DNA of 43,616 nucleotides. Origin: Escherichia coli (GTDB taxonomy: Bacteria; Pseudomonadota; Gammaproteobacteria; Enterobacterales; Enterobacteriaceae). A program made the position numbers and the translations under genes. Each line of letters begins with the position of its first letter. Position 1 is the stretch's first letter. The stretch is from assembly GCF_003334305.1 (NCBI RefSeq), contig NZ_QOWS01000029.1; one strand, given 5' to 3'. This document shows, piece after piece, positions 41,914 to 42,620 of the stretch. The notes under the pieces were generated by a model. That model was not told where the DNA came from, did no database searches, and saw nothing but the letters and a program-made list of their open reading frames with translations.

Positions 41914-42186
41914 ATGGTCACAGTTAACCTTCATTGCCCCCGTTGCCAGTCCGTTCAGGTTTACCGTCACGGGCAGAACCCAAAAAGACATGATCGATTC
42001 CGCGGCCGTGACTGTCACCGGGTATTTCAGCTCAGTTACTGTTACGAGCCCCGTAAACCGGGAGTTAAAGACCAAATCGCTGAAATGACTTTCAACGGTG
42101 CCGGGGTTCGCGATACTGCCCGTACGCTGAAAATCGGCATTAATACAGTCATCCGAACTTTAAAAAACTCTCGCCACGAAGAATAA
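41914..42186 (+). CDS. insA: IS1-family InsA (zinc-finger/HTH transposition regulator)
   Basis: 90-aa ORF with CxxC...C..H zinc-finger-like N-terminus and HTH (GVRDTARTLKIGINTVIRTLK), then the A6C slippery motif tttaaaaaactc at about 42159..42170 as in IS1. Confidence 0.85.
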   Translation: MVTVNLHCPRCQSVQVYRHGQNPKRHDRFRGRDCHRVFQLSYCYEPRKPGVKDQIAEMTFNGAGVRDTARTLKIGINTVIRTLKNSRHEE

Positions 42187-42620
42187 CGTCATCCCCGGTC
42201 GCTCATGCTGATGTGGCACTCATCTGCAAACTTAGTCAGCAATGGAGCTTTGTCGGCAGTAAAGCGCGACAGCACTGGCTCTGGTACGTGTACAACACGA
42301 AAACTGGTGGTGTTCTGGCCTACACTTTTGGCCCCCGGACTGACGAAACCTGTCGTGAATTGCGGGCGCTGCTTACCCTTTTACCATCGGCATGTTGACC
42401 ACTGACGAATGGGGTAGTTACGCTAGAGAGTTACCGAAGGAGAAGCATCTGACTGGTAAGATTTTTACTCAGCACATTGAGCGTAACAATCTGACCCTGA
42501 GAACCCGAATCAAACGTCTGGCCCGCAGAACCATCTGTTTCTCGCGTTCTGTAGAACTTCATGAAAAAGTCATCGGTGCTTTTATCGAAAATATATGTTC
42601 TACTAATTGGAGTCATCACC
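42159..42620 (+). pseudogene. insB: IS1-family insB frame, apparently interrupted by an extra frameshift near 42385..42400
   Basis: The -1 frame after the A6C motif reads InsB-like sequence (…ICKLSQQWSFVGSKARQHWLWYVYN…FGPRTDE…) to a stop at about 42399. InsB-like sequence then continues in another frame (MLTTDEWGSY…IERNNLTLRTRIKRLARRTICFSRSVELHEKVIG). Confidence 0.55.

Follow-up and report, generated by a model that had tools for sequence, protein, structure and literature searches.

A frameshifted IS1H-type element at the edge of the RhsF island of Escherichia coli is very probably a decayed, non-autonomous relic

Canonical IS1 (IS1A, K-12) carries insA and insB' between 23-bp repeats, and the two reading frames are joined by a -1 frameshift at an A6C motif (PMC12903888, PMC12428005), the mechanism of which has been described for IS1 (PMC12903888). 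The zinc finger and helix-turn-helix (HTH) of the transposase are required to bind the element ends, and the DDE motif is required for catalysis (PMC12903888, PMC12428005). Canonical IS1 is active and produces target duplications of 8-9 bp, and immobile canonical IS1 copies, as well as cassettes flanked by its left and right terminal repeats (IRL and IRR), can be moved by InsAB' acting in trans (PMC12903888). The iso-IS1 element IS1N of Shigella dysenteriae shares this architecture, as do IS1N-like elements from E. coli and Klebsiella, and the group is intact and multicopy. A further described iso-IS1, which bears the ISfinder isoform name IS1H and is called ‘IS1-like element IS1H family transposase’ by RefSeq, lies beside RhsF, that is, at the locus considered here. 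Two other uses of similar names were considered and set aside: the ‘IS1H’ placed upstream of flhDC in K-12 by papers on flagellar motility is a copy label of canonical IS1 and differs from the IS1H isoform, and the paper on ‘RhsFI’ concerns a different locus of EHEC (S-loop 44) and makes no mention of the IS described below.

The stretch of DNA that we analysed (henceforth referred to as the window) comprises 43,616 nucleotides of E. coli contig NZ_QOWS01000029.1 (assembly GCF_003334305.1) and contains, close to its right-hand end, an element of the IS1 family (Table 1). Members of this family are ~768 bp long and are bounded by imperfect repeats of ~23 bp that start with GGTGATG or GGTAATG; the element in the window measures 764 bp (766 bp in intact members of its own clade) and has two such repeats, both of them intact and matching each other at 21 of 23 positions. 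A search of the window with the terminal-repeat pattern returned these two places only, against 0.01 matches expected by chance. The frame arrangement of the family was likewise found, with insA and insB' overlapping and joined by a -1 slip at A6C. At the protein level, the NCBIfam model NF033558 (‘IS1 family transposase’) matched the InsA piece with E=5e-24 and the InsB' part, once its frames had been repaired, with E=3e-43, and NF050000 (IS1/IS1595 N-terminal zinc-binding domain) matched InsA with E=5e-08. The repaired 231-aa InsAB' aligned colinearly and at 100% coverage with InsAB' homologues of 231 aa, IS1N of S. dysenteriae among them (84-87% identity, E down to 2e-138), which confirms the points at which the frames must be joined. 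The homologues found in this way carry PF03811, PF12759 and PF03400, in keeping with the zinc ribbon, HTH and DDE_Tnp_IS1 of the family. A target duplication of 8-9 bp was not found, as the left flank (CCGGTAAAC) and the right flank (CTTCTGATA) are unrelated; this absence is the mark of a later rearrangement and no argument against membership of the IS1 family.

Table 1. Coordinates of the element, its parts and its neighbours in the window
Feature	Position	Strand	Evidence
Whole IS1-family element, IS1H type, 764 bp, very probably a non-autonomous relic	41857..42620	+	limits from inverted repeats
IRL, left terminal inverted repeat, 23 bp, GGTGATGCCTCCAATTAGTTGAA	41857..41879	+	repeat-pattern search
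IRR, right terminal inverted repeat, 23 bp, GGTGATGACTCCAATTAGTAGAA on the minus strand	42598..42620	-	repeat-pattern search
insA ORF, 90 aa, uninterrupted, stop TAA at 42184-42186	41914..42186	+	ORF list; NF033558, NF050000
Programmed -1 frameshift site TTAAAAAAC, A6C at 42162-42168	42160..42168	+	identical in intact relatives
insB' segment 1 (KKLSPRR...RALLT), shifted by -1 from the insA frame; out-of-frame codons follow up to TGA at 42396-42398	42165..42398	+	
Degenerate putative catalytic motif, AAA CTT AGT CAG (K-L-S-Q) against GAA CTT GAT GAG (E-L-D-E) in intact relatives	42228..42239	+	
Lesion 1, C3 where intact relatives have C4 (GCCCCTTTT); frame broken between T155 and P156	42376..42378	+	DNA alignments
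insB' segment 2, third frame (PFTIGMLTTDEWGSY...VIGAFIE), with second Asp (TTDEW) and Glu (IERNNLTLR) of the putative DDE triad	42377..42587	+	
Lesion 2, A4 where intact relatives have A5 (GAAAAATAT); last five codons shifted	42588..42591	+	DNA alignments
5' 81 nt (27 codons) of TIGR02117-family lipoprotein gene, severed by the left end of the IS	41776..41856	+	DNA search with 87-bp flank
Rhs downstream ORF dsORF-f3, right-hand neighbour of the IS, frameshifted	42676..42999	-	annotation in ATCC 8739, C1, EDL933
Rhs core C-terminus (DPxGL motif) and toxin tip of ~150 aa; ORF continues past the end of the window	43000..43616	-	

An earlier note on this DNA had reported an A6C slippery motif followed by an InsB-like frame that soon reaches a stop, with InsB-like sequence resuming in a different frame. 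The motif is indeed present, close to the end of insA, and the sequence that follows it in the -1 frame is insB'-like, starting with KKLSPRRITSS and retaining homology through RALLT before the frame closes at the TGA listed in Table 1. The InsB-like sequence does resume one frame over, where translation from the ATG at 42392 reads MLTTDEWGSY; homology in this frame begins earlier, at ~42377 (PFTIGMLTTDEW). A second extra break of the frame, absent from the earlier note, lies near the C-terminus: ...GAFIE and KYMFY* are in different frames, and the last five codons (KYMFY) stand out of frame before the stop TAA at 42604-42606.

A plasmid search identified the nearest intact relatives of the element on pSA20083530.1 of Salmonella enterica (94.6% nucleotide identity) and on pEM148 of Escherichia marmotae (94.3%), the latter plasmid having three places that match the element. 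In both cases the element is 766 bp long and is annotated with an uninterrupted 231-aa InsAB' that needs only the A6C slip. Compared with both of these relatives, the window copy has no more than two indels (del1@520 and del1@733 in our lesion table; lesions 1 and 2 in Table 1). Each is a deletion of a single nucleotide and the contraction of a homopolymer, and the deletions were also mapped by DNA alignment to S. dysenteriae IS1N and to an intact IS1N-like element of E. coli. The disruption of insB beyond the programmed frameshift, as claimed in the earlier note, can thus be defined as a shortfall of two nucleotides against the intact 766-bp relatives, owing to which a full-length protein would need three frame changes and not one. 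It also holds that the transposase is not encoded as one polypeptide, since the two extra deletions spread insB' over three frames and no single InsAB' frame is left after the programmed slip.

The window copy also differs from its relatives at conserved residues. In insA, Cys31, the third Cys of the CxxC...CxxC zinc finger, is replaced by Gly (TGC to GGC, 42004-42006), and in insB' the substitutions E106K, D108S and E109Q turn ELDEQW into KLSQQW, a change that is private to the copy at the yiiX-Rhs locus. All four positions are conserved in each of the 13 aligned homologues, and at all four the window copy departs from canonical IS1 too, in which C31 and D108 are kept and the Asp lies within CAEMDEQW. 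From the conservation of D108, and from a spacing typical of DDE enzymes with D165 (TTDEW) and E190 (IERNNLTLR, followed seven residues later by an Arg), we infer for D108 the role of first catalytic Asp in the DDE triad. With C31G the window copy does not have the intact Cys4 zinc finger expected of an autonomous element, and with D108S, if D108 has been assigned correctly, it does not have the intact DDE triad either. The repaired window protein has 15 private substitutions relative to both intact relatives. On the branch of the window copy, dN/dS is ~0.4 (13 synonymous and 16 non-synonymous changes, 29 in all, which are too few to date the decay); this value is not clearly neutral and, therefore, a large share of the differences from the intact relatives may be older than the inactivation.

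In an intact 766-bp element, insA is translated and a rare -1 slip on A6C yields the 231-aa InsAB', in which the zinc finger and HTH serve end binding and the DDE domain catalysis. The window copy has kept insA and the slippery site; the contractions from C4 to C3 and from A5 to A4 split insB', and the point substitutions have removed a zinc-ligand Cys and the putative first catalytic Asp. Taken together, the frame splits, C31G and D108S suggest that active transposase cannot be produced. The view of the earlier note that the element is probably immobile unless complemented in trans gains strength from C31G and D108S, which are present even in the frame-corrected product. We therefore regard it as very probable, on the basis of the sequence, that the element is a decayed, non-autonomous copy of the IS1H lineage, located at the yiiX-proximal edge of the Rhs island (RhsF) and without an active transposase. 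The intact ends and insA could conceivably still have a role, be it in mobilisation in trans, in repression of the InsA kind, or through an effect as promoter or terminator.

The order of genes at the locus is metJ-yiiX, the IS, dsORF-f3, and an Rhs core with its toxin tip, and we assigned it to RhsF because of the ‘dsORF-f3’ annotation in ATCC 8739, C1 and EDL933. The 87-bp segment that separates yiiX from the IS (41770-41856) is the beginning of a lipoprotein gene of the TIGR02117 family. CUPF09 and BL21-derived BLK9 have an intact version of this gene (624 bp; 5007-5630 of L024/L025 in our set of comparison loci) between yiiX and rpmE. Homology to this BL21-like state breaks exactly at 41856 and restarts 8 bp beyond the stop codon of the gene, at the rpmE terminator, and thus the IS and the Rhs DNA stand in place of 550 bp of BL21-like strains, including the 3' part of the lipoprotein gene. 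Overall, the yiiX-rpmE interval occurs in three states in E. coli, namely 60 bp only (K-12), the intact lipoprotein gene (289 genomes), and the truncated gene with the IS and the Rhs island (~2,400 genomes), all of which have their right-hand breakpoint in common, at the rpmE terminator (CAGGCACAAAAAAAGCGCC). An empty site, in which both flanks of the IS are joined, was seen in 0 of 5,426 genomes. The suggestion in the earlier note of an old, fixed rearrangement junction is borne out as far as rearrangement is concerned by this result, by the missing target duplication and by the replacement of 550 bp. The word ‘fixed’ applies within the island, whereas only ~44% of complete E. coli genomes have the island at all. 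Either an adjacent deletion mediated by IS1 or recombination between copies of the IS may have produced the junction.

The genes on either side of the element showed features of their own. In the window, yiiX (41162-41769) has 608 nt and not 609, as one T is absent at ~41555 by comparison with EDL933 and ATCC 8739, and the gene is split into two ORFs; it is identical to yiiX of CFSAN029787, which is annotated as frameshifted, and this identity indicates a real pseudogene allele and no error. In dsORF-f3, one A of an A-run (around 42786-42794) is gone relative to ATCC 8739, and the EDL933 and CFSAN029787 versions of this ORF are frameshifted too. The Rhs tip is annotated with a DUF4329 domain in ATCC 8739. 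When the window was compared with ATCC 8739 (L001), the IS was 100% identical, yet yiiX differed by 13 substitutions and an indel and the metJ-yiiX spacer measured 60 bp against 184 bp; the identity of the IS next to a diverged yiiX and spacer suggests that the island allele has moved between chromosomal backgrounds by recombination.

We also compared the element with further copies of its own clade, which is only 78-80% identical in nucleotide sequence to the IS1N group and stands apart from it in the tree. Of the clade's E. coli copies, 11 distinct ones were sampled (from the chromosome, pO157 and other plasmids), and all are defective, each with its own indels, deletions or stops; intact members were seen solely on the plasmids from Salmonella and E. 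marmotae. The C-run beside T4 in which lesion 1 lies (positions 517-520 of the 766-bp element) has suffered independent indels in at least four lineages: L004/L027, L005 and the window group each have a -1 indel there, and L030 has a +1 indel. In L004 and L005 the deletion occurs at loci unrelated to that of the window, and the copies that share it each have further private frameshifts or stops. The run is best seen as a homopolymer indel hotspot. The proposal that the deletion was the founder lesion of a proliferating frameshifted lineage was considered and is largely rejected: L004 is nearer to L016, a copy without the deletion (95.3%), than to that in the window (92.7%), any mapping on the tree takes about three events, and L030 has an extra base in the same run. 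More adventurous ideas, namely that the C4T4 tract acts as a recurrent or reversible slip-strand off-switch of the transposase, that frameshifted copies have spread by trans-mobilisation, or that the relic is useful to the host (for instance through its intact insA ORF, or by marking where the Rhs island ends), strike us as highly improbable.

Remnants and insertions connected with the same clade were seen elsewhere. At the RhsE locus of E. coli MB22 (L033, 2501-2632) there is a 132-bp 3' remnant of this IS clade that is 93.9% identical and has A5, not A4; 10 bp separate it from dsORF-e4 of a second Rhs element, and an ISAs1/H-repeat transposase gene lies beside it. A remnant of this type is probably the ‘second place’ that is matched in many genomes. 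Apart from the IS remnant, the IS junctions at RhsF and RhsE proved to share no homology. Some strains have a canonical IS1F inserted within the relic; in the one that was examined, E. coli RUT3575 (L006, 1501-3040), PGAP annotates the IS1F as a pseudogene with an internal stop.

A non-autonomous element can still be mobile, and we considered whether the intact ends of the window copy might be moved, MITE-like, by a related InsAB' in trans. Both terminal repeats are nearly identical to those of the intact relatives, mobilisation of this kind is established for canonical IS1 and for cassettes flanked by IRL and IRR (PMC12903888), and the defective L004 recurs, all three of its lesions included, on an IncI plasmid (L027). 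L004 and L027, however, may have moved within a larger segment, and the ends of canonical IS1 differ at 7 of 23 positions. The ATCC 8739-like genomes have a single clade match and thus hold no source of a cognate transposase, and, as described above, intact clade members were seen on Salmonella and E. marmotae plasmids only and no empty site was found. No sign of past movement of the window's allele was detected among the copies of at least 98% identity whose flanks were examined, every one of which lies at the yiiX-Rhs junction; the flanks were examined for part of the ~4,500 matching places, and a rare transposed copy of the exact allele could escape such a sample. We consider mobility in trans to be highly unlikely for this copy.

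It is extremely improbable that the window copy still gives rise to some full-length, functional transposase by multiple slips, with ribosomes shifting by -1 again on the C-CTT-TTA tract and slipping once more close to the C-terminus. The change of frame required at lesion 1 is indeed -1, the tract is pyrimidine-rich (ACC CTT TTA) such that a UUA in the A site could re-pair with UUU, and the same C-run deletion is present at other loci (L004/L027, L005). On the other hand, the tract as read in the incoming frame is no canonical X XXY YYZ heptamer, the slipped product would have Leu-Leu in place of the invariant P156-F157, and in the intact relatives the A6C slip alone suffices. The occurrence of -1 and +1 indels in separate lineages is as expected of a mutational hotspot, the copies concerned each carry additional private lesions, and in the window copy the zinc-finger Cys and the putative catalytic Asp are gone as well. 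A second programmed frameshift is thus rejected on the grounds of the heptamer, of Pro-Phe and of Cys31/Asp108, and the extra frame breaks are read here as decay of a copy that very probably has no active transposase.

The distribution of the element bears on the age and the reality of its lesions. Copies that cover at least 80% of the query were found in 2,401 of 5,426 complete E. coli genomes; the complete genome records of E. coli with a copy of at least 99% identity number at least 1,501, and the best 30 matches listed are all 100% identical and come from many laboratories and platforms. Sampled uninterrupted full-length matches of at least 98.3% identity all span exactly 764 bp, and none spans 766 bp. 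The orthologous copies in ATCC 8739 (100% identical), C1 (98.6%) and EDL933 (98.7%) have both deletions together with C31G and the LSQ changes, and other positions vary among the orthologous copies that share both deletions. As the lesions are common to every orthologous copy examined, they arose before the island allele spread, and the junction can be called old, as the earlier note had proposed. The remaining alternative, which that note had raised as a concern, is that two bases were lost as homopolymer-length errors of sequencing or assembly from a truly intact 766-bp element; although both lesions do lie in homopolymer runs (C4 and A5) and the same 2-kb stretch has more single-base frameshifts, in yiiX and dsORF-f3, we give this reading practically no credence, because the independently assembled records, the orthologues that differ elsewhere, the constant 764-bp length and the recurrence of the yiiX frameshift in CFSAN029787 effectively refute it, and the deletions are real mutations.

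The element is already known, as a RefSeq-annotated frameshifted IS1/IS1H pseudogene, and is an ordinary IS relic. The import of our results beyond annotation is small: a widespread IS1H-type copy is very probably a dead relic, neither an active element nor an assembly error, and the exact bases that it lacks relative to the intact 766-bp relatives are now defined. The three-state yiiX-rpmE interval provides a handy marker of the history of the island and, for genome scanning, a ‘frameshifted’ call on an IS1 can mean true decay past the programmed slip.

With respect to known systems, canonical IS1 (IS1A) is 768 bp long against 764/766 bp, its protein is strongly diverged, its left repeat is identical to IRL of the window copy at 16 of 23 positions, and it makes target duplications, which the window copy does not have, although the motifs ...DEQW..., ...TD.W... 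and ...RIER.NL.LR... of canonical IS1 also occur in the window lineage. The InsAB' proteins of the IS1N group are 84-85% identical to the repaired window protein, and the group forms the separate, intact clade described above. The elements on pSA20083530.1 and pEM148 share insA, the frameshift site and, but for one or two bases, the terminal repeats with the window copy; they are 2 nt longer (C4, A5) and have Cys31 and ELDEQW (EPDEQW in the Salmonella copy). The IS1H-labelled element beside RhsF agrees with the window copy in locus, 764-bp length, orientation and frameshifted flag. The window's allele differs by ~1.4% from the IS1H-labelled alleles and is given the generic name ‘IS1 family transposase, frameshifted’ by PGAP/RefSeq, whereas alleles of 98.3-98.6% identity at the same locus are named ‘IS1-like element IS1H family transposase’; the orthologues, too, are annotated as frameshifted pseudogenes, and we infer that the ISfinder reference for IS1H has the same two deletions.
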